From Alphaproteobacteria bacterium (GTDB taxonomy: Bacteria > Pseudomonadota > Alphaproteobacteria > UBA828): a stretch of DNA of 64,000 bases. Both the position numbers and the translations under genes were made by a program. Shown piece by piece: positions 17,271 to 43,241 of the stretch (its first letter is position 1; the number at the start of each line of letters is the position of its first letter). The stretch is from NCBI GenBank assembly GCA_965237415.1, contig CBDEFM010000002.1, positions 2,400,001 through 2,464,000 on the forward strand. The letters are read 5' to 3'. A model generated the notes under the pieces. That model saw only the letters and a list, made by a program, of their open reading frames with translations. It made no database searches and had not been told where the DNA came from.

Positions 17271-17553
17271 GGGACGCTATCTTAGTCTTGATGAGGCTCG
17301 GCGGGACAGCCAGATTGGGCAGTTCTGCAGGGAGCATCCATCTGAGGGTGATCCAAGGCAATTCACAAAACTGATGTCAGCCATGACTAGAACGCTGCCA
17401 ACAGTCGATCAAACATCCGATCCGGGCTCGTCCGCATATTGTAGCGATACTCAAACTCCTTCACGTACTTCGGCAGATGCTTCCCCGAAACGTGAACATG
17501 AGTCCCGCGAATCGACAGCTTCAGACGCGCCCAAAAGCCCTCAAGGCCATTGA
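17263..17553 (+). CDS. IS passenger: small hypothetical protein overlapping the transposase 3' end in antisense
   Basis: AGGAGG ribosome-binding site before GTG 17263; coupled to the upstream ORF. Confidence 0.55.
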   Translation: MARGRYLSLDEARRDSQIGQFCREHPSEGDPRQFTKLMSAMTRTLPTVDQTSDPGSSAYCSDTQTPSRTSADASPKREHESRESTASDAPKSPQGH

Positions 17554-18241
17554 CGTGACTGTCGCCGCTCACATACTCGCCCAGCCCGTGATTGACCGTC
17601 TCGTGCCTGTAGCCGGCTTTGTCGAGGCCGGTGTAGGAACCCAGCTCGTCGGTATGGACGGTGCTGCCCGGCTCGACATTCTCGGCAATGATTGGATGCA
17701 GCGTGCGCTTACGGACGTTCGGAACGACATTCGCCATGATGTCGCCGCTACGTTCCAACATCCCGAAGACGATGGTCTTGTTCGGAGCACCGCGCCCACG
17801 CTTTCCGCCAGACCGTTTCCCGCCAACATAGGTTTCGTCGGCCTCAACAGCGCCGCCCAACGGGGGCTCGCCGTTCACTTTGGCCATGTATTTGCGAATC
17901 TCGTGCCCCATGCGCCATGCGCATTTGTAGGTGACGCCCAATTGCCTTTGCAGCTCCTTCGCGGGGACGCCATGCCGCGTCGTGGTGAACAGGTACATCG
18001 CATAGAACCACTTCTGAAGCGGTGTGTGGGACTTCTCAAATGGCGTCCCGACCATTGGGTGAATGTGGTGACCGCAGCGCGGGCAGGAATAGGCCGGTTT
18101 CTTGCTCAGGCGGTAGAATTTGCCCACCTTCCCGCACTTGAGGCACTCAACTTCATTGCCGTAGCGGGTTTGCCACAAATGCTCCAAGCAAGCATCGTCG
18201 GTCGGGAACTGGCGGAAGAACTCTGTGACGGTGAGTGTCAT
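17387..18241 (-). CDS. IS1595 family transposase
   Basis: Zn ribbon CLKC/CPRC, HTH, EADETYVGG, HTDE, NGLEGFW, EFEYRYNMR; AGGAGG upstream of ATG. Confidence 0.95.
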   Translation of the reverse strand: MTLTVTEFFRQFPTDDACLEHLWQTRYGNEVECLKCGKVGKFYRLSKKPAYSCPRCGHHIHPMVGTPFEKSHTPLQKWFYAMYLFTTTRHGVPAKELQRQLGVTYKCAWRMGHEIRKYMAKVNGEPPLGGAVEADETYVGGKRSGGKRGRGAPNKTIVFGMLERSGDIMANVVPNVRKRTLHPIIAENVEPGSTVHTDELGSYTGLDKAGYRHETVNHGLGEYVSGDSHVNGLEGFWARLKLSIRGTHVHVSGKHLPKYVKEFEYRYNMRTSPDRMFDRLLAAF

Positions 18242-18388
18242 GGCATTGCCTCCTGACACTCAATATAGGGACTCTGGCCACGTACGTCAAGGGGATAATC
18301 GCCAAAAAGTGTGTTGCCCGAGGTGGGACGCGGAACCGGACCGCGAGGGTGGTGAGAAATGCGGGCCAAGCGGTGGCCCATGTTGACC

Positions 18389-19792
18389 TGTCGAGAACAT
18401 TTTGAGTTGACCGGTTTATGTACCAAATGAGTTGACCGCTTCTGTTGATGTGGTTGGGCCTGTGGGGAAGTGGTCGGGCGCGGAGCGGCTGTCCACTTGT
18501 CCACAGGGCACCGGCGGGCTGCGTCGAAGCGGATCACGCGGCCTGCCGGGTTTGGCTGTCGATGGGCTCGCCGTCGGCGTTGTAGCGGGCCAAGCATCTG
18601 GGGCCGTGGAAGAGGGCGAGGGTTCCGTCTGGATACTCGTGCACCCTGACCCTTGCCTTGACGTAGTGGTGGCGATGGCGGGCGGGTGGGATGTGCAGGC
18701 TCAGGCCGTGGTAGCGCACGGTGTTGTCGTTGCCGACGGTGCGCTCCTGCTGCACGCAGAGGATGTCGTCGAGCGCGCCTGCGAAGGGCACGAAGGCGGA
18801 GCCCTTGTCCTCGGCCGGGGTTGCGAAGCGGGCGTTGTGGAGCGGCAGGTAGAGCTCCCTGAGGAAGCGGTTGGCCTCGGCCATCTCGGTGATGCCGGCG
18901 AGCCTGAGTTCCTGGGGCAGGCGTTTCTGCAAGGTCCCGAACATGCGCTCGGAGCGCGCCCTGGCCTCGGGCGAATAGGCCGCGATCGGCTCGATGTCGA
19001 GCTGCTGAAGCGCACGGCCGACCTGGGTCGGCTTGTCCTTGTCCACCGTGCCGCCGGCCTCGGGCGTGTGCCAGTAGTGGCTGGCCCGGTCGGCGTAGAG
19101 CGAGCAGAACAGGCCCTTGGCCCGGATCACCTCGGACAGCGCCCGGAAACTCGACATCGTACCCTCCTCGTCGACGAAGAAGGCCGAGTAGATCTCGCTG
19201 GTGGCGTCGTCCATGGTCACGATCAGGTCCCACCGGCGGCCCGGCACCCACGCGTGGTGCGAGCCGTCCTGGTGCAGCATCATGCCGGGAAGCGCACGGC
19301 GCGGACGCTTGCGCCGGTGCGCGCCGCGCCGGGGCGCAGCCCGCATGCGCCCACGTGCCTGCAAGGTCAGGCGCACCCAGTTGCAGCTGCGCTCGCAGTC
19401 GTGCTCGGCGACCAGCTTCTCGTGGAAGTGCTTGGCCGTGAAGTCCCAGTAGCGGGTGTCGAACAGCTCAAGCACCCGTACCACTTCGTCCACCGGGGCG
19501 CGCCGGGCCGAGACCCGGCCCAGGCGGCGGTCGTAGAGACCGTCGGCGCCCTCCGCCTCGTAGCGATCGCGCCAGCGCCGGAAGGTCCGTTCCGACACGC
19601 CCAGAACCTCCGCCGCCTCGGCCTGGCTCAACAGCCGTGACCTGGTCCGCCCATACACCTCCTCGAACTTCATCAATCTCAGTCCCTGTGCCTGCTCCGT
19701 CCGACGCATCCAAACCCTCCATGGTCTGGATGCCTTCTAAAACCGGACAGATCATCTGGTACATAGACCGGACATATCCTGTGTTACCGACA
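18389..19792 (-). mobile_element. IS1202/IS481-like insertion sequence (1404 bp)
   Basis: TGTCG...CGACA ends; 16-bp DR GTGGCCCATGTTGACC at 18373..18388 and 19793..19808. Confidence 0.93.
18534..19709 (-). CDS. ISNCY/IS1202-type DDE transposase
   Basis: HQDGSHHAW, MDDATS, YADRAS, RSERMFGTLQKRL; homologous to 878..2062. Confidence 0.93.
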   Translation of the reverse strand: MRRTEQAQGLRLMKFEEVYGRTRSRLLSQAEAAEVLGVSERTFRRWRDRYEAEGADGLYDRRLGRVSARRAPVDEVVRVLELFDTRYWDFTAKHFHEKLVAEHDCERSCNWVRLTLQARGRMRAAPRRGAHRRKRPRRALPGMMLHQDGSHHAWVPGRRWDLIVTMDDATSEIYSAFFVDEEGTMSSFRALSEVIRAKGLFCSLYADRASHYWHTPEAGGTVDKDKPTQVGRALQQLDIEPIAAYSPEARARSERMFGTLQKRLPQELRLAGITEMAEANRFLRELYLPLHNARFATPAEDKGSAFVPFAGALDDILCVQQERTVGNDNTVRYHGLSLHIPPARHRHHYVKARVRVHEYPDGTLALFHGPRCLARYNADGEPIDSQTRQAA

Positions 19793-29772: not shown

Positions 29773-30519
29773 ATGCCCACGAATCGCGACATCCGCGACA
29801 GGTACACTGAGATCATTGGCCACTTGGTGAGAGAGCATGGATCGGCGGTCTCCGGCTACGAGATTTCCAAGGATGCTCCCCTCGCGCAGTGCATCGGGTA
29901 CGCGCGGCGTTTCGTCGTAGGAGGTGCGCGCGATGAGCCGCACTATCGATACGACCGGTACATGCGAGTGTTGCAATCAGCGTGTCGGTGGCAACCAATA
30001 CACGCGGGAACGGTGATTCATGTAGATATTGGATGTGGCCCGGGGCTGTTTACTTGGGTAGTCAGAGATTATTTTCGCGCTAACTTGCCGGTTCATGTTG
30101 AATTATACGGTTATGACCACGCAATATGCATGGTTGAACTCGCGACTTCAATATGGGACCTGCTGGAAGAGAACGCAAACTATTCGTGCCATCATGATCT
30201 TTGTGAGTTGATTTCGGATGCAAAACCAGTGGTCGCTGATGCGTGCCGCGTGCTGATTACGCTGGGTCACGTACTCATTCAAACTGTCGATGACAACTCT
30301 GCCGCCGACGATTTTGCGAGAATCATTGCAATGTGTGCACGAATAGCCAATTGTCTATTGGTAGCAGTGGATGCCCAGATGGGGGACCGGCCAGAAGATT
30401 TCCGTAGGGCGCACGACCAGCTGCAAGCCGCTCTGGAGCAACGTGGACTGACTTGCAGTATTCCCGTGATGGGCCGGTCAGACATGGTGATGAGCGTCCG
30501 AGTGACGGATCGGCCATGA
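29773..30519 (+). CDS. Class I SAM-dependent methyltransferase-like protein
   Basis: VIHVDIGCGPG motif I and LYGYDH motif II; GC visibly lower than flanks. Confidence 0.7.
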   Translation: MPTNRDIRDRYTEIIGHLVREHGSAVSGYEISKDAPLAQCIGYARRFVVGGARDEPHYRYDRYMRVLQSACRWQPIHAGTVIHVDIGCGPGLFTWVVRDYFRANLPVHVELYGYDHAICMVELATSIWDLLEENANYSCHHDLCELISDAKPVVADACRVLITLGHVLIQTVDDNSAADDFARIIAMCARIANCLLVAVDAQMGDRPEDFRRAHDQLQAALEQRGLTCSIPVMGRSDMVMSVRVTDRP

Positions 30520-34653: not shown

Positions 34654-35649
34654 ATGGGGTCAGGGTTGGATGTCGTCGGGATCGGCAACGCGATCGTCGA
34701 TGTCGTGGCCGAGGCCGACGACGCGCTGCTCGCCGAAGAAGGCCTCCCCAAGGGCTCGATGACCCTGATCGATGCCGAGCGCGCCGAGGCGCTCCGCGCG
34801 CGCATGGGCCTCGCGGTCGAGGTCTCCGGCGGCTCGGCCGCCAACACCATGGCGGGCGTCGCCATGCTCGGCGGCGCGGCCGGCTACATCGGCAAGGTGC
34901 GGGACGATGCGGCGGGTGCGGTGTTTCGCCACGACATCCAGGAGGCGGGCGTCGCCTTCCCCACCCCGGCGGCGGCGGACGGCGCGGCGACCGCGCGTTG
35001 CCTGATCTTCGTGACCCCCGACGCCCAGCGCACGATGAACACCCATCTCGGCGCCTGTGTCGAGCTCGGCCCCGGCGATATCGATCCGGACTTCATCGCG
35101 AGCGCCCGGCTGCTCTACATGGAGGGCTATCTCTGGGACCCTCCGGCGGCCAAGGAGGCCTTTCGCAAGGCACTCGGGATCGCCCACGCGGCAGGCGGGC
35201 GGGTCTGCCTCTCGCTCTCCGACAGCTTCTGCGTGGACCGCCACCGGGCGGAGCTTCGCGAGCTGGTGGCGAACCACATCGATGTGCTGTTCGCGAACGA
35301 GGACGAAGCGATGGCGCTTTACGAAGTGCGGGACTTCGACGCGGCCCTCGCCGCCGCCCGCGCGGACTGCGCCATCGCGGCCCTCACCCGAAGCGCCCAG
35401 GGCTCCGTGGTCGCAGGCGACGGCGCGGTCCACACCATCGAGGCGGCGCCCATCGCCCGGCTGGTCGATACCACCGGCGCAGGCGACCTCTACGCCGCAG
35501 GCTTCCTCCTAGGATTGGCCCGGGGCTTCGACCTCGCCCGCTGCGGCCGCCTCGCCTCGCTCACGGCGGGCGAGATCCTCGGCCACTACGGCGCCCGGCC
35601 CGAGGCGGACATCGCCCCCTTCGTCGACGCGAGCCAGCATCCGCTTTAG
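34654..35649 (+). CDS. Adenosine kinase-like PfkB carbohydrate kinase
   Basis: GIGNAIVD, GGSAANT, RTMNTHLG, DTTGAGDLYAAGF. Confidence 0.9.
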   Translation: MGSGLDVVGIGNAIVDVVAEADDALLAEEGLPKGSMTLIDAERAEALRARMGLAVEVSGGSAANTMAGVAMLGGAAGYIGKVRDDAAGAVFRHDIQEAGVAFPTPAAADGAATARCLIFVTPDAQRTMNTHLGACVELGPGDIDPDFIASARLLYMEGYLWDPPAAKEAFRKALGIAHAAGGRVCLSLSDSFCVDRHRAELRELVANHIDVLFANEDEAMALYEVRDFDAALAAARADCAIAALTRSAQGSVVAGDGAVHTIEAAPIARLVDTTGAGDLYAAGFLLGLARGFDLARCGRLASLTAGEILGHYGARPEADIAPFVDASQHPL

Positions 35650-35721
35650 CCCGAAATTCTAGGGGATTATATGGTCGGGAGGCGGTTGCGGTGGCGAGAA
35701 TTGACTGCTGATTGACAGGGG

Positions 35722-36084
35722 CTAGGAACCGCCAATCAGGGCCTTGCTCGCTGCTTCCGTCGGGAAATGGTGTGCGTCAGATTCTTTGAATCCCCGAAAG
35801 ACGCCAAGCAGCACAAACACTATAATAATGGTGATGCCTAAAAGTGGTGCAATCGCCAAAAGGATGAACAAGTCGCTGATTTCAGTTTGGCATTCGAGAA
35901 GATACTGTAATAGACGCCATTCCAGGACGCCATACGCTATAATGACAGTACCGGCCGCAATAACCGCTATCCAGCGAAGCCATATTCTTTGGCTTGCCGC
36001 TTGCAGAGCATAGTCCGGAGTGCTCCGATCCAAGCTTTCTGCTTCAATTACTGCATCCGGGTCTTGGGATGGCACGTCAGGCAT
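35722..36084 (-). CDS. Two-TM membrane protein, candidate Panacea-paired toxin/effector
   Basis: Two long hydrophobic helices; ATG overlaps the Panacea stop by 8 nt. Confidence 0.7.
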   Translation of the reverse strand: MPDVPSQDPDAVIEAESLDRSTPDYALQAASQRIWLRWIAVIAAGTVIIAYGVLEWRLLQYLLECQTEISDLFILLAIAPLLGITIIIVFVLLGVFRGFKESDAHHFPTEAASKALIGGS

Positions 36085-36568
36085 TCTGCGCCCGCGCCAG
36101 CTTGTCCTTATAGTGTGCGGCGATGATATCGTCAGGAATGGGTTGGAACTTTGCCCCCTGCCGATACACCGTGTGCCACGGGCCACCCTTGATGTGCGTT
36201 AGGCGAGACAACTGAGAGGCAGACAATTCTTTATAAAGATCATCTACTTGCACCAATAGAGATTCAATGTCGCCCTCTAATGTGCGCTCGTGCATGTCCA
36301 ATGGGCGGATATCGTGAACACCCCGCGGACGAAAGGCATGATAGATAGCCGGGATCACTGGTCCGTAGTCCCACGCTTCAATACGGTCCTGTATCAATGG
36401 GCGGTCTCGCACCGCAAGGCACCATCCATGTGCCATATACACGATCTTCAGCACATGCATGATCGACATTGATCGGCCGCGCGCGTGCGCTCGACGGATA
36501 AACCAGTTGGCTATCTGCCGGCTATCGTATGGATGCGGCGTTTGTTGCTGTTGGGTTGCGAGTGCCAT
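36077..36568 (-). CDS. Panacea / SocA-like (DUF4065) antitoxin domain protein
   Basis: IANWF, LKIVYMAHGW, IEAWDYGPV, LSRLTH..GGPW; GGAG RBS. Confidence 0.88.
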   Translation of the reverse strand: MALATQQQQTPHPYDSRQIANWFIRRAHARGRSMSIMHVLKIVYMAHGWCLAVRDRPLIQDRIEAWDYGPVIPAIYHAFRPRGVHDIRPLDMHERTLEGDIESLLVQVDDLYKELSASQLSRLTHIKGGPWHTVYRQGAKFQPIPDDIIAAHYKDKLARAQNA

Positions 36569-36592
36569 TGCAGTTCTCCGGAGGCTACCCGG

Positions 36593-36757
36593 TTATGGCT
36601 CCACCTCCCCTTTGGCCTGACGCCGCTCAGCGCCGCCGCGCGTGACGGCCCACGCCAACGCTTTGGGCGTGGCATCGATGCTCACGTCCTCTTCCATGTC
36701 GGATTTGGTGGGTTGGTGGGCGGCCGGGTCGCTGACCCTCATGCCTTCCTCTACCAT
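36593..36757 (-). CDS. Small hypothetical protein upstream of the Panacea gene
   Basis: ATG 36757 preceded by GGAGG; co-oriented with the Panacea gene inside the cassette. Confidence 0.45.
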   Translation of the reverse strand: MVEEGMRVSDPAAHQPTKSDMEEDVSIDATPKALAWAVTRGGAERRQAKGEVEP

Positions 36758-37335
36758 CGCCTCCCTCCGTGACGCCGTGTGCCACACGATGGTCATTATG
36801 GTAACGCACTAGCCATCCTTGCACACACTGTGTGCATGGGACACCCCCAAAATGTGCATGCGTGACATTTTCGGCACGGCCATGCCTAATAGCGCATGGA
36901 CGTCGCAGAGGCCGGCATATGGGGAGCTTCGGCACTATTCGATATAATTCCCAAATTCTAACCTGGACCATGGTGCGGTGCAGGGCGCGTGCCGCCGGTG
37001 CCAGTATCGCGCCATGCGTCGACTATGTTCCCGCGCGCGTATCCGCGCGACTTACCGCGCGCACGCGACTCATATTCTGCGCCCGCGACCTTTCAGGCGC
37101 GGGCGACTCGGGCGTGCGCGTCCCTGTCCCGAGGAATCCCACTTATCCCACTTAATCCCGCCGAATCCCGCCCACAAATTAAGTTGCAAGACTCGATATT
37201 CCGGGCGCACGACCCTGCGGGCGTGCGCGACATCCCACTTATCCCACTTAATCCCGGCGAATCCCGCCCAAGAATTAAGTGTTGAGCCCGAGGCGGGGGG
37301 TGGAACCGGATCGCGACCCTGGCGAGATTTCCGGG

Positions 37336-38415
37336 CTATGCGACCTTCGGCAGAACCTCGTTCTTGAGCAGTGCCATGGATTCGTACCAGGCCTCGTAGG
37401 GATCCCAGTCGTGCCCCATGGCGAGCAGCGTTCCGAAGGGGCCGATCTCGCCCCGCAGGTCGTTCAGCTTCTGCGCGACCTCGTCGACGCTGCCGACGAT
37501 GAAGACGTTGTCCACGAGGTACTCGATGGTCACGTCGCTGTCGGGCATGTCCCGATCGTTCTTCAGCAGGGGGAGCATCCCGACCTTGGGCAGGAGGCGG
37601 AGGAAGTAGTCGCGGAAATCGCGGGCGAGGACCCCCTCGCACGCAAGCTTCCGGGCCTTGGCGCCGGTTTCCGCCACCACGACCTCACGGGCGACGCGCC
37701 ACACGCTGGCATCGGGGGTACGGCCCGCCTCGCGCGCTCCTTCCTCGATCGCGTCCCAGTGCGTCTTGAGCAGCACCGGGGGCACGAGGTTGATGGACAT
37801 GGGCATCCAGCCCTTGGCGGCGGCCATCTTCAGCGTGGACGAGCGGGGCGAGACGCCGGCGACACCGATCGGGGGATGCGGCTTCTGGTAGGGGCGAACG
37901 TGTGCTCTCAGCCCGATGTCTGTCTCGGTCTCGGGCACGGTGAAGCGAAAGCCGTCGCTCTCGTAGACGCCGGGCGCGGGGTCGGTCCAGAGCTTCAGGA
38001 TCGTGTCCAGCGCGGCCCGCGTGTAGCTCTGGTTGTTGATGGCGGGGTTGTCGCCCCAATAGCCGAAGACCTGCATGTCGCCGGGGAAGCTGCCGGTGCC
38101 GACACCCCAGTTGAAGCGGCCCTCCGCCATGTGGTCGAGCTGCGCGATCCGGTGGGCGAGAACGAAGGGATCGTGGTTCGGGATACAGCTCACGCCCGTG
38201 CCCAGCCTGATCTGCTTGGTGAGCGGGATCGCCTGCGCGATGAGCAGGTCCGGCGCGGGGATGTTCTCCCACTCCGACGTGAAGTGCTCGCCGATCCAGA
38301 CCTCGGCGTAACCGAGCTCGTCGAGCTTGACGATCTGATCCAGGTCCGCCTTGAGCGTCTCGGTGAAGTTCGCGCCCGGCGGGTGCAGCGGCATGGTGAA
38401 AAGACCGAGTTGCAT
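37336..38415 (-). CDS. LLM-class (luciferase-like) flavin-dependent monooxygenase
   Basis: MQLGLFTMP, WIGEHF, IRLGTGV, PYQKPHPPI. Confidence 0.9.
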   Translation of the reverse strand: MQLGLFTMPLHPPGANFTETLKADLDQIVKLDELGYAEVWIGEHFTSEWENIPAPDLLIAQAIPLTKQIRLGTGVSCIPNHDPFVLAHRIAQLDHMAEGRFNWGVGTGSFPGDMQVFGYWGDNPAINNQSYTRAALDTILKLWTDPAPGVYESDGFRFTVPETETDIGLRAHVRPYQKPHPPIGVAGVSPRSSTLKMAAAKGWMPMSINLVPPVLLKTHWDAIEEGAREAGRTPDASVWRVAREVVVAETGAKARKLACEGVLARDFRDYFLRLLPKVGMLPLLKNDRDMPDSDVTIEYLVDNVFIVGSVDEVAQKLNDLRGEIGPFGTLLAMGHDWDPYEAWYESMALLKNEVLPKVA

Positions 38416-41645: not shown

Positions 41646-42572
41646 TCACTCGTCTCGAGACGACGTCACCTCCCGTACGATGTCCCTGAAGAGGCCGAAT
41701 GGCGACAGGTCGTCGGCGGACCGCCGCGAGATCATCCCCGCGCGGTAGCGGTATGAGCCGAACGCTACCGGCAGAGGTTTCAGAGGTTGTCCGGGGAGCC
41801 TGTCGAGGAAGGTCAGCGAGAGCCATGACAGGTAAGAGCCTGCTCCCATCAGGAACAAACCGCCGCACCCGGCACGGGTGACGGTTTTCACCCGCTTGCT
41901 CGTCCTGTCGTAGAGCTGGTCGAGAACCCCGGTCAACCCCGGCCGCCCGTTGGCGGTGTAAGTCCGCAAGGGCGCGTCGAAGTCAATCCACGGGTAGTCG
42001 GCGAGCGCCCCTTCGTTCAGCGTACCCGAATGGAGCGGATGGTTCTTGTGGGCGACGATTCCCCACGTCATGTCGAGGAAGCGTTCGCTCCTCAGGAACT
42101 GTGGCAGGGGTTCGTTGCCGCTGATCCCACCGCAGTGGAGGTCGCTGTCGCCGTTCGCCAAGAGGCGGATCCCCTCCGACAAGGGGGTGGTTTTCAGTTT
42201 GAGCTCTACCCCGGGGCAGGTCTCGTGGAACCTGGCGATGACATCGGGGAGAACGGCCCCCATCCACACAGGCCCGGCCGTGACCCGCAGACTGCCAGTG
42301 CGGCCGGAGAGCGTCGCACTGATTTTCTCTTCGGCAACTTCGATTTCATAGAGGATGTGGCGTGCCAGATCGGCGACCACGGCGCCGAGCGGCGTGAGCC
42401 GGACACCCGTGGACATGCGGTCGAACAGCCGGCCACCGAATTGGCGCTCGAGCCTTGCGACAACCCGCGAGAGGGCAGGCTGCGTGATGCCGAGCTTGTC
42501 GGCCGCAGACAGAATCGCGCCTGCTTCCGCGACGGCGAGGAATTTAGTCAGGTCCTTGCGTTTTTCAAACAT
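41646..42572 (-). CDS. LysR family transcriptional regulator
   Basis: AADKLGITQPALSR...LE...G.RLFDR helix-turn-helix. Confidence 0.92.
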   Translation of the reverse strand: MFEKRKDLTKFLAVAEAGAILSAADKLGITQPALSRVVARLERQFGGRLFDRMSTGVRLTPLGAVVADLARHILYEIEVAEEKISATLSGRTGSLRVTAGPVWMGAVLPDVIARFHETCPGVELKLKTTPLSEGIRLLANGDSDLHCGGISGNEPLPQFLRSERFLDMTWGIVAHKNHPLHSGTLNEGALADYPWIDFDAPLRTYTANGRPGLTGVLDQLYDRTSKRVKTVTRAGCGGLFLMGAGSYLSWLSLTFLDRLPGQPLKPLPVAFGSYRYRAGMISRRSADDLSPFGLFRDIVREVTSSRDE

Positions 42573-43241
42573 CTTGCGTCCACATCCTTCGGGAATTAAC
42601 TCCATGTCCCTCACATGTGGATGTGGCAAGCATGGTGAATGGCGTCTAACAACGAATTCTGATTCAGCCGATAGGATATACTTATCCGAGATCGGCACGG
42701 GGCGCGAGACAGCTCCGGTGAGGCCGACAGCGCGACTCGTGATCTCTCAAAGTTGTGATGCAGCGCCCAACGGTCGCCCGGTTGACCATTCGACACTCGA
42801 AACTGACGTATCGGCTCTTCCGAAATACCGGTAACTCGTTGTCTTTACTGAAATACCTCAATGCGGCGGTGACGCACGAAGGGCCGGCGCCAGCCACCGG
42901 CCACGAGGTTCATTGATCGAAGCCCAAGGTTCAGCCCCGCCTAAGGCTACTTCGCTCACTTAGACGGTGTTAGTCCTTTTTTGGCCCGGAGCGAGCGTTC
43001 TGTACAAGCGTCCCACACCGCATTATGCCGTTTTGGCATTTATTTTCTCTGGACAGTTATTCTTTGTGTCGATCGTTCTCAGCTTGGCGAGTCGGATGGG
43101 ACAGACTTGGTATCTGCGGGATCGTTGAATTGACGCGCAATCTCGACGAGTTGGTGGGAACGATGGGTCTTGCGCGAATACCGCCGTTTGCCCGCTGTGT
43201 CGCGGCGCGACGCCTTGGCGAAGACCCGTCATCGTAGTCGC

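Follow-up and report, generated by a model that had tools for sequence, protein, structure and literature searches.

A decayed IS1595-type insert with a probable PanAT pair in an alphaproteobacterial genome

The 1291-bp insert at positions 35662..36952 of a 64,000-nt window from an Alphaproteobacteria bacterium (UBA828 lineage; GCA_965237415.1, contig CBDEFM010000002.1, positions 2,400,001 to 2,464,000) raises the question of what brought its genes to this site, whether the unit still moves and what the genes encode. The reading we favour, at a probability of about 0.7, is a decayed IS1595 transporter insertion sequence (IS) with an internal deletion that carries a type II-like PanAT toxin-antitoxin (TA) pair with a membrane toxin. 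On that reading the insert adds an instance to two known kinds, decayed IS1595 transporter ISs and PanAT pairs, and is not a new system. The initial annotation had called it the best candidate for a new system, which is overstated: PanA antitoxins with membrane toxins are already validated (Kurata et al., 2022, PNAS; PMC8832971). The annotation was right that the insert is of IS1595 type, lacks a transposase and bears cargo, namely a Panacea gene and a translationally coupled two-transmembrane (2-TM) gene.

The element was inserted at this site. The low-GC segment is bounded by GGGGATTATAT and GGGAATTATAT termini, the left inverted repeat (IR-L) reading GGGGATTATAT at 35662-35672 and the right (IR-R) being the reverse complement of GGGAATTATAT at 36942-36952; the two are complementary at 10 of 11 nt. 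A pattern scan with GGGRATTATAT, allowing at most one mismatch, matched only the two insert termini in the 64-kb window, where the mean chance expectation is 0.25 and 2 of 100 shuffles gave two matches. A perfect 8-bp duplication, AAATTCTA, is flush with both termini. Duplication of 8 bp is an IS1595-family feature and was also found in 5/5 complete relatives checked. GC content is 0.47-0.58 within the insert versus about 0.70 in the flanks, and 0.555 for the element versus 0.667 for the genome. Sequence, scan and GC drop confirm the previously proposed segment with GGG(G/A)ATTATAT repeats and a perfect duplication. The empty site that had been suggested as a check was found in the sister species G004, where the flanks are contiguous, 95-96% identical to the window flanks and joined by one diverged target copy. 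The flanking genes encode a pfkB-type kinase and a luciferase-like monooxygenase. They lie 11-34 nt apart without the element in 9 further genus genomes (of 20 others), and on separate contigs or far apart in the remaining ones. The element has a copy number of 1 in its own 4.75-Mb genome.

A host repeat family resembling repetitive extragenic palindromic (REP) sequences occupies window 36962-37330, beginning 1-4 nt outside the duplication (start ~36962-36965). Two 49-nt copies within it (37136-37184 and 37232-37280) are spaced 96 nt apart. The family has many copies in the genome and in relatives, and its depth in sequencing runs is very high. Removal of the element had been claimed to restore the end motif of this repeat. 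The repeat starts beyond the duplication, its sequence is complete whether or not the element is present, and removal therefore restores nothing in it. Two sister cassettes in G004 (loci L022 and L023) have the same host repeat on both sides, and are therefore a hint of insertion next to REP ends.

Transposase searches and alignments were used to establish what kind of IS the insert derives from. Past nucleotide 11 the left end resembles neither the right IR nor those of relatives, and element nucleotides 10-54 encode MVGRRLRWRELTAD-stop. This remnant matches residues 299-311 of the L025 transposase with 61.5% identity (E 0.033 by tblastn in a small search) and aligns with the C-termini or 3' ends of four transposase genes, those of L024, L025, L028 and the own-genome element at C2:3241845. 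A full IS1595 transposase (zinc ribbon PF12760 plus DDE_Tnp_IS1595 PF12762) is absent from the insert; L025 and L028, which are complete relatives, have both domains, as do the own-genome elements. Because only a 14-codon C-terminal stub is left, the insert is a derivative and not an autonomous IS1595 member. The fusion of the left end to this stub therefore corresponds to a transporter IS minus the inner part of IR-L and about 297 transposase codons. The junction attests the internal deletion; its timing is presumptive. Judged by its sequence, the sister PanAT element L024 (genome G005) is an intermediate state of decay, with a 5'-truncated transposase (residues 174-310) convergent with its 2-TM gene and no left end.

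The right IR is intact. Its 25-mer family bounds elements in 6/9 relatives' loci, and over its first 19 nt it matches exactly the IR of an autonomous element at G000:C1:278360-281776 (G000 being the insert's own genome). Both insert termini start with GGG(G/A)ATTAT, the right continuing as the full 25-mer and the left ending after 9-11 nt. The element is presumably ISNwi1-like; that subgroup is reported in ISfinder and in Siguier's 2009 work to have ends ggnnatTAT, an 8-bp duplication and passenger genes.

In the own genome, the IS1595 transposase domain is matched 24 times. A genome-wide terminus scan detected four elements (loci L033-L036) of 3.2-4.1 kb with GG(G/A)(G/A)ATTATA(T/C) termini and 8-bp duplications, so that the search proposed earlier for a cognate transposase with GGGRATTATAT ends turns up cognate-type ones within the same genome. 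Three of the four encode an uninterrupted 322-337-aa transposase with Zn_ribbon_IS1595 and DDE_Tnp_IS1595 domains, the genes lying at C1:278437-279429, C1:159412-160425 and C2:3241923-3242891; the fourth's transposase is split. The four transposases are 59-72% identical to the relevant clade, and the three apparently intact ones are 59-66% identical to those of L025 and L028. These two relatives combine a full transposase with the 25-nt IR and small-ORF (open reading frame) module of the insert, L028 being a 2278-bp element with both IRs and the duplication ATAAGTTT. The cargo of three own-genome elements is of restriction-modification type: an N6_N4 methylase fused to HNH, a methylase with a SmaI-like nuclease (E 8e-6, below the Pfam cut-off) and an 861-aa Eco57I-type restriction-modification enzyme. 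In the fourth, none of the passenger ORFs has a family.

The window has an IS1595 copy of its own (17431-18303; transposase 17387..18259, PF12762 at 159 bits), previously put forward as the element matching the cassette. The match holds for its GGCGATTAT-type right end near 18303 but not for its transposase, which shares no more than 36-38% identity with the transposases of the cassette's family, and better cognates are found elsewhere in the genome. The right end of this copy reads GGCGATTATCC. A sibling at C2:2036791-2037661 shares 79% identity with this copy over 872 bp, but not its left end; the copy lies within a low-GC stretch at ~15.5-18.5 kb.

These resident transposases bear on the question of mobility. 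A functional mobile cassette, moved through its 11-nt left and full right ends by an ISNwi1-type transposase supplied in trans, would explain the perfect 8-bp duplication abutting both termini and the conservation of the terminal 11 nt at both ends; three apparently intact same-clade transposases (59-66% identical to L025/L028) are at hand in the genome, and the IRs of one resident element equal the right IR over the first 19 nt. We nevertheless rate this account as rather unlikely, as the left IR retains 9-11 of 25 positions and is fused to a transposase remnant just as an internal deletion would leave it, and the genome has a single copy. Contigs from the three public runs that cover the cassette (X7, X10 and X12) cross the same junctions, placing it at the same site in 3/3. 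One 1382-nt contig of X7 spans both junctions, and the only alternative form is a G004-like empty site, in X10. No cassette terminus is among the loose ends listed for the runs, with 472 further loose ends outside that list, and the exact 30 nt of the left junction have 0 matches in metagenome contigs. Among the 10 elements that bear the insert's right-end module, the transposase is full in two (L025 and L028), truncated in two (L024 and L026) and a stub in the present insert, and the other five have no transposase match at tblastn E<1 across the 6.5-kb locus. These states therefore form a pattern of decay. Among them, no two identical copies lacking the transposase were found in different flanking sequence. 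The G004 copies L022 and L023 were considered as evidence of transposase-less mobility (82.6% identity over 1340 bp) and rejected: they are no proof of clean transposition because their homology continues at either end for ~65 nt into the same host repeat.

IS1595 transporter ISs with passenger genes were reportedly described by Siguier, Gagnevin and Chandler in 2009 in Res Microbiol 160:232 (as cited in PMC3129680). The insert shares with them the 8-bp duplication, GG..ATTAT termini and passengers between the transposase gene and one IR, and its autonomous own-genome relatives carry methylase or restriction cargo; it differs in having lost the transposase and most of IR-L. Mobile insertion cassettes such as MIC231 of Bacillus cereus, said to have been reported by De Palmenaer and colleagues in 2004, likewise have IS-derived ends around non-transposase genes and no transposase, but they have two functional IRs and are mobilised in trans, whereas the insert has an IR-L of 9-11 nt and no sign of mobility was found. 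Membership in that class entails two complete IRs and signs of mobilisation; the insert has a truncated IR-L, one copy and one site. The description of the cassette as trans-mobilised is not supported, given an IR-L of 9-11 of 25 nt, a transposase stub, a single copy and the same site in 3/3 runs. By its structure, deletion in situ would account for the cassette at least as well as trans-mobilisation, and the 1291-bp remnant is now probably immobile.

The cargo retained in this remnant was analysed with profile and locus comparisons. PanA matches PF13274 SocA_Panacea with E 6.7e-16 and 59.6 bits (cut-off 25.7), and NCBIfam SocA_antitoxin NF047745 with 96.7 bits, below the equivalog cut-off of 190. 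The PanA gene and the 120-aa gene overlap, stop to start, by 8 nt, ATGCCTGA, which together with the PF13274 match verifies the annotated Panacea gene and overlapping 2-TM gene. PanA lies directly upstream of the 2-TM gene, usually overlapping it, in 6/6 intact loci examined (own, L024, L041, L042, L086 and Paracoccus phage vB_PsuS_Psul1; L087 is the L086 stretch under a second record name). Not counted among the six are L040 (internal stop), L088 (contig end), L037 and the weak matches L032 and L043; L037, detected in a profile scan of genome contigs, was rejected as a family member because its 33-residue match is spurious. The PanA/2-TM pairing is conserved, and an adjacent co-directional partner gene kept across unrelated contexts, the mark of a PanAT pair, is present in all six loci. 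Prediction of a complex between PanA and the 2-TM protein gave scores of 0.23 and 0.20, under the mark of 0.32, and carries no weight for or against binding.

The pair is most likely a PanAT of known kind, by analogy with characterised systems. Kurata et al. report that three small TM-helix PanTs are toxic and depolarising and are neutralised by their own PanA, that PanAs form complexes with their toxins, and that PanAT toxins sort into 88 clusters (PMC8832971). As in the PanATs with a membrane PanT described there, the Panacea gene comes first; the gene that follows, within a few bases or with overlap, encodes a small protein whose N-terminus is charged and whose TM helices are C-terminal, and pairs are found on prophages and near transposases (PMC8832971). 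The present pair differs in that its 2-TM family has no detectable similarity to the two partners compared and is known here from sequence. Toxicity, neutralisation by binding and a trigger would follow by the same analogy. Dataset S1 of that paper lists IS1595 transposases beside PanA in six genomes as false-positive 'toxins' or accessory genes (PMC8832971), so the association of IS1595 with PanA has been seen before, although not analysed. Among the plasmid matches of PanA by tblastn there was no organism listed under T10 in the portion of Dataset S1 used here.

A related arrangement with another membrane partner was observed at L051 (G093:C1:1651849-1654968, positions 1498-2555), where a divergent small-ORF homologue and PanA (E 4.2e-16) precede a 119-aa protein with a charged N-terminus and TM character. 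The locus comes from a different taxonomic family of the same class and has the same three-gene layout, and its partner belongs to a different family from the 2-TM protein (hhalign probability 8).

The 2-TM protein has hydrophobic segments at residues ~35-53 and ~72-95 and an acidic N-terminal third, with 7 acidic and 2 basic residues among residues 1-34. It has no match among Pfam, NCBIfam or PADLOC models. The L024 homologue is 43% identical (E 7e-25), and a word-index search returned 2 relatives only. A profile search of 1.84 billion representatives extended the family to 278 members at E<=1e-3, with 96 reaching E<=1e-10; most are 110-150 aa long, and the family shares a conserved Q-R..LR motif, TM1, and LAISPI..IT.IVIF.LIGVFRGFR..D around TM2. 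The family is rare in isolate genomes, being found in 2/401 genomes of the class sample (one doubtful), 3/21 genomes of the genus and 3/401 genomes drawn at phylum level (each from the window's own class, one match weak). tblastn with the 2-TM protein found no match in plasmids or phages; the phage member, encoded with its PanA by p14/p13 of Paracoccus phage vB_PsuS_Psul1, emerged only by profile comparison (hhalign probability 97.3, E 2e-11). A decayed 2-TM gene was observed at L040 (G017:C12:720487-723864, ~1500-1900). It contains an internal TAA and an 84-aa C-terminal ORF and lies in a low-GC patch of 600 nt; PanA is absent from its surroundings.

The phage member raises the possibility that the pair acts mainly in anti-phage defence or superinfection exclusion, with a phage product inactivating or titrating PanA, the membrane protein aborting infection and element stabilisation being secondary. 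Psul1 is a temperate phage, and its pair lies ~1 kb from a CI-like repressor gene; PanA gave tblastn matches at E<=1e-3 in 143 phage records, and the sister transporter ISs of the own genome carry defence-type restriction-modification cargo. The antitoxin part of the CapRel TA fusion reportedly senses a phage capsid protein. The defence reading is possible but less probable than the one we favour: no PADLOC defence model matched (0 families for the three insert proteins), and chromosomal copies, L042 for example, are flanked by housekeeping genes, the ORFs listed for that locus including no other defence gene.

The lack of homology to any validated toxin and the partial SocA match (96.7 bits) would also suit a 2-TM protein that is a membrane anchor or sensor, with PanA acting, for example, as a SocA-like proteolytic adaptor and the pair not being a TA system at all. 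We regard this as very unlikely. The architecture is that of validated membrane PanTs (charged N-terminus, C-terminal TM helices, antitoxin gene first, overlap), the pair is strictly conserved across distant contexts in 6/6 loci, and PanA stays under the SocA equivalog cut-off (96.7 vs 190 bits), which likewise sets it apart from the SocAB type VI TA system.

A decayed transporter IS with a PanAT pair suggests the following course of events. An ISNwi1-like IS1595 transporter IS would have inserted between the stop codon of the pfkB-family kinase gene and the REP-like repeat, duplicating AAATTCTA. Its ancestral layout would have been IR-L, a rightward transposase gene, then the 2-TM gene, PanA and the small ORF read leftward from IR-R. 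An internal deletion of ~1 kb would have removed the sequence from IR-L nucleotide 10-12 to about transposase codon 297. The surviving operon would be transcribed from a conserved block inside IR-R, through the small ORF, PanA and the translationally coupled 2-TM gene. The 2-TM protein would enter the inner membrane and depolarise or permeabilise it, PanA would bind and neutralise this toxin, and loss or sequestration of PanA would free it. The outcome would be stabilisation of the element by addiction, and abortive-infection-type phage defence is possible.

Several observations weigh against this interpretation. The data fit a deletion before insertion at the present site as well as one after it, and the ISNwi1 subgroup label is tentative. 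The 2-TM family profile gave an hhalign probability of 1 against the T12-cluster partner of Aggregatibacter phage S1249, and of 4 against the annotated PanT of Escherichia coli phage PhiR47_1, where the match covers 32 columns of the last TM helix; one sequence per cluster was compared, and PhiR47_1 PanT was placed in T3 by assumption. The blank PADLOC result for all insert proteins counts here as well. A scan for consensus promoters and terminators found 0 sites, and the promoter is for this reason only a candidate.

The remaining part of the insert is a right-end module of ~360 bp (36593-36952) that is 73-83% identical in relatives, next to varied cargo. Its order from the outside is the 25-nt IR, a variable stretch, a palindrome/-10 block, a GGAGG Shine-Dalgarno sequence and a 54-aa ORF. 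The block contains a perfect palindrome, TGCACAC-N3-GTGTGCA (36810-36826), that is present in the own copy, L062, L063 and L073, and a -10-like CATAAT on the sense strand (36785-36790); in the alignment it is a candidate operator and promoter. Rfam models had 0 matches at E<=1 over 35500-37400.

Codon-position analysis shows that the small ORF behaves as a coding sequence. In 45 pairwise comparisons among 10 copies, the per-site differences were 0.21/0.20/0.38 for codon positions 1/2/3, versus 0.42/0.44/0.40 in the upstream control. The co-oriented small ORF of the initial annotation is real in this respect; the start is probably ATG 36757, which makes it 54 aa instead of 67. It is intact in 6/10 copies, the others carrying TAG (L022), TAA (L030), a frameshift (L026) or a degenerate sequence (L027). 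A search returned 126 homologues at E<=0.01, 0 of them with a Pfam domain and the few named ones called 'hypothetical protein', with a near-invariant core, DPAAHQPTKADMEEDVSIDATPEALAWAVTRGGAERRE. Homologues occur in 8/401 genomes of the class sample and in 13/21 of the genus, with 29 matches in the latter. An AlphaFold2 model from 33 homologues is poor, showing three short helices with a mean predicted local distance difference test score (pLDDT) of 62.7 and a predicted template modelling score (pTM) of 0.20, and an ESM Atlas search with the homologue P0007 gave best scores of 0.80-0.81, within the chance range. From these alignments the small ORF is a conserved backbone gene of this IS group, and its constant place behind the palindrome suggests a possible role in the IS as regulator or accessory factor.

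The elements form a cargo-swapping family. The module was found beside different cargo in 9 relatives' loci, 6/9 of which also have the 25-nt IR, as anticipated by the proposal to search for the same IRs with other cargo. The cargo at these loci comprises HigB-like, protease-like, M78 peptidase and unassigned gene pairs. Cargo was listed from Pfam scans, one of them covering 49 selected of 112 candidate ORFs, with 18 assigned a family at E<=1e-3. PanA follows the module three times, in the own copy, L024 and L051. HigB-like pairs follow it at L062 (= L022), L073 (= L023) and L078, homologous pairs by blastn; HigB itself is matched in Pfam only in the L022 copy (E 1e-3, below cut-off), and three 92-aa ORFs of these pairs have no family in the second Pfam scan. 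Further cargo comprises ParDE, Trypsin_2 (twice), Peptidase_M78, a ClpP-like protease, a nucleoside 2-deoxyribosyltransferase-like protein, N6_Mtase, DUF2158 (twice), HTH_73 and many ORFs without a family; ParDE, the methylase and other cargo follow more distant small-ORF homologues. DotD, TcpQ, DctP and Cache matches are probably neighbouring genes and not cargo. A degenerate small-ORF homologue was also observed in the own genome (L056, G000:C2:2945166-2945309), followed by a gene for a 303-aa ClpP-like SDH-type serine protease.

No paper was found in the literature on a right-end module of small ORF and palindrome common to elements with different cargo, and the module is the more novel part of the element. 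It might serve ISNwi1-type IS1595 elements as a dedicated platform for cargo: the promoter/regulator cassette would be fixed, and addiction and defence genes would be captured and exchanged behind it. This is a speculative proposal that we hold to be unlikely. As a TA module within a transposable element, the insert resembles the addiction-type pairs inside Tn3-family transposons (Lima-Mendez et al., 2020, mBio, as cited in PMC8832971). It differs from them in transposon family and TA type, and in that the present TA pair outlasted the transposition machinery.

Table 1. Features of the insert and related transporter ISs of the same genome (window positions for the insert; contig positions for the transporter ISs).
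Feature	Position	Strand	Basis or remark
Target-site duplication, left copy, AAATTCTA	35654..35661	.	Identical to 36953-36960; single diverged copy at the G004 empty site
Left IR remnant, GGGGATTATAT	35662..35672	+	Terminal 9-11 nt of 25-nt IR left
Transposase 3'-end remnant, 14 codons plus stop, MVGRRLRWRELTAD-stop	35671..35715	+	tblastn, translation, DNA alignment
Putative membrane PanT-like toxin, 120 aa, two TM helices	35722..36084	-	ORF, hydrophobicity, PanA neighbour
PanA (Panacea/SocA-like), 163 aa	36077..36568	-	PF13274
Acidic small ORF, 54 aa, isoelectric point 4.75, GGAGG Shine-Dalgarno	36593..36757	-	Codon-position differences, homologues
Non-coding block, candidate operator/promoter	36785..36826	-	Alignment of 10 copies
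Intact right IR, 25 nt, sense GGGAATTATATCGAATAGTGCCGAA	36928..36952	-	Same 25-mer family in relatives
Target-site duplication, right copy, AAATTCTA	36953..36960	.	Sequence reading
Transporter IS	C1:278360-281776		Duplication GAACTTTT
Transporter IS	C1:157195-161176		Duplication CTAAATTG
Transporter IS	C2:3241845-3245073		Duplication CTTCCTTT
Transporter IS	C2:3432661-3436765		Duplication TAAACATT

Other parts of the window show signs of foreign DNA. A repeat of ~965 bp at 18388-19360 has at least 17 further genome copies with 76-99% identity and is presumably another IS. The 500-nt bins 501-1000, 30001-30500 and 42501-43000 have a GC content of 0.52-0.56 versus 0.67 for the genome and may be other foreign inserts.

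The insert is a concrete, datable case of an IS-delivered TA pair retained after transposase loss, which fits the view that selection retains addiction or defence cargo rather than the transposase. Its 2-TM protein further brings to light a membrane-protein family linked to PanA, with 278 representatives, that lies outside Pfam, NCBIfam and PADLOC models. In the right-end module, a strongly conserved 54-aa IS-borne protein and its candidate operator, with no described function, accompany many cargo types. If the module is a cargo platform, the small protein would be a new IS-encoded regulator that couples cargo expression to the element, and these ISs would be shuttles for TA and defence genes (PanAT, HigB-like, ParDE, restriction-modification and proteases) whose cargo survives longer than the transposase.

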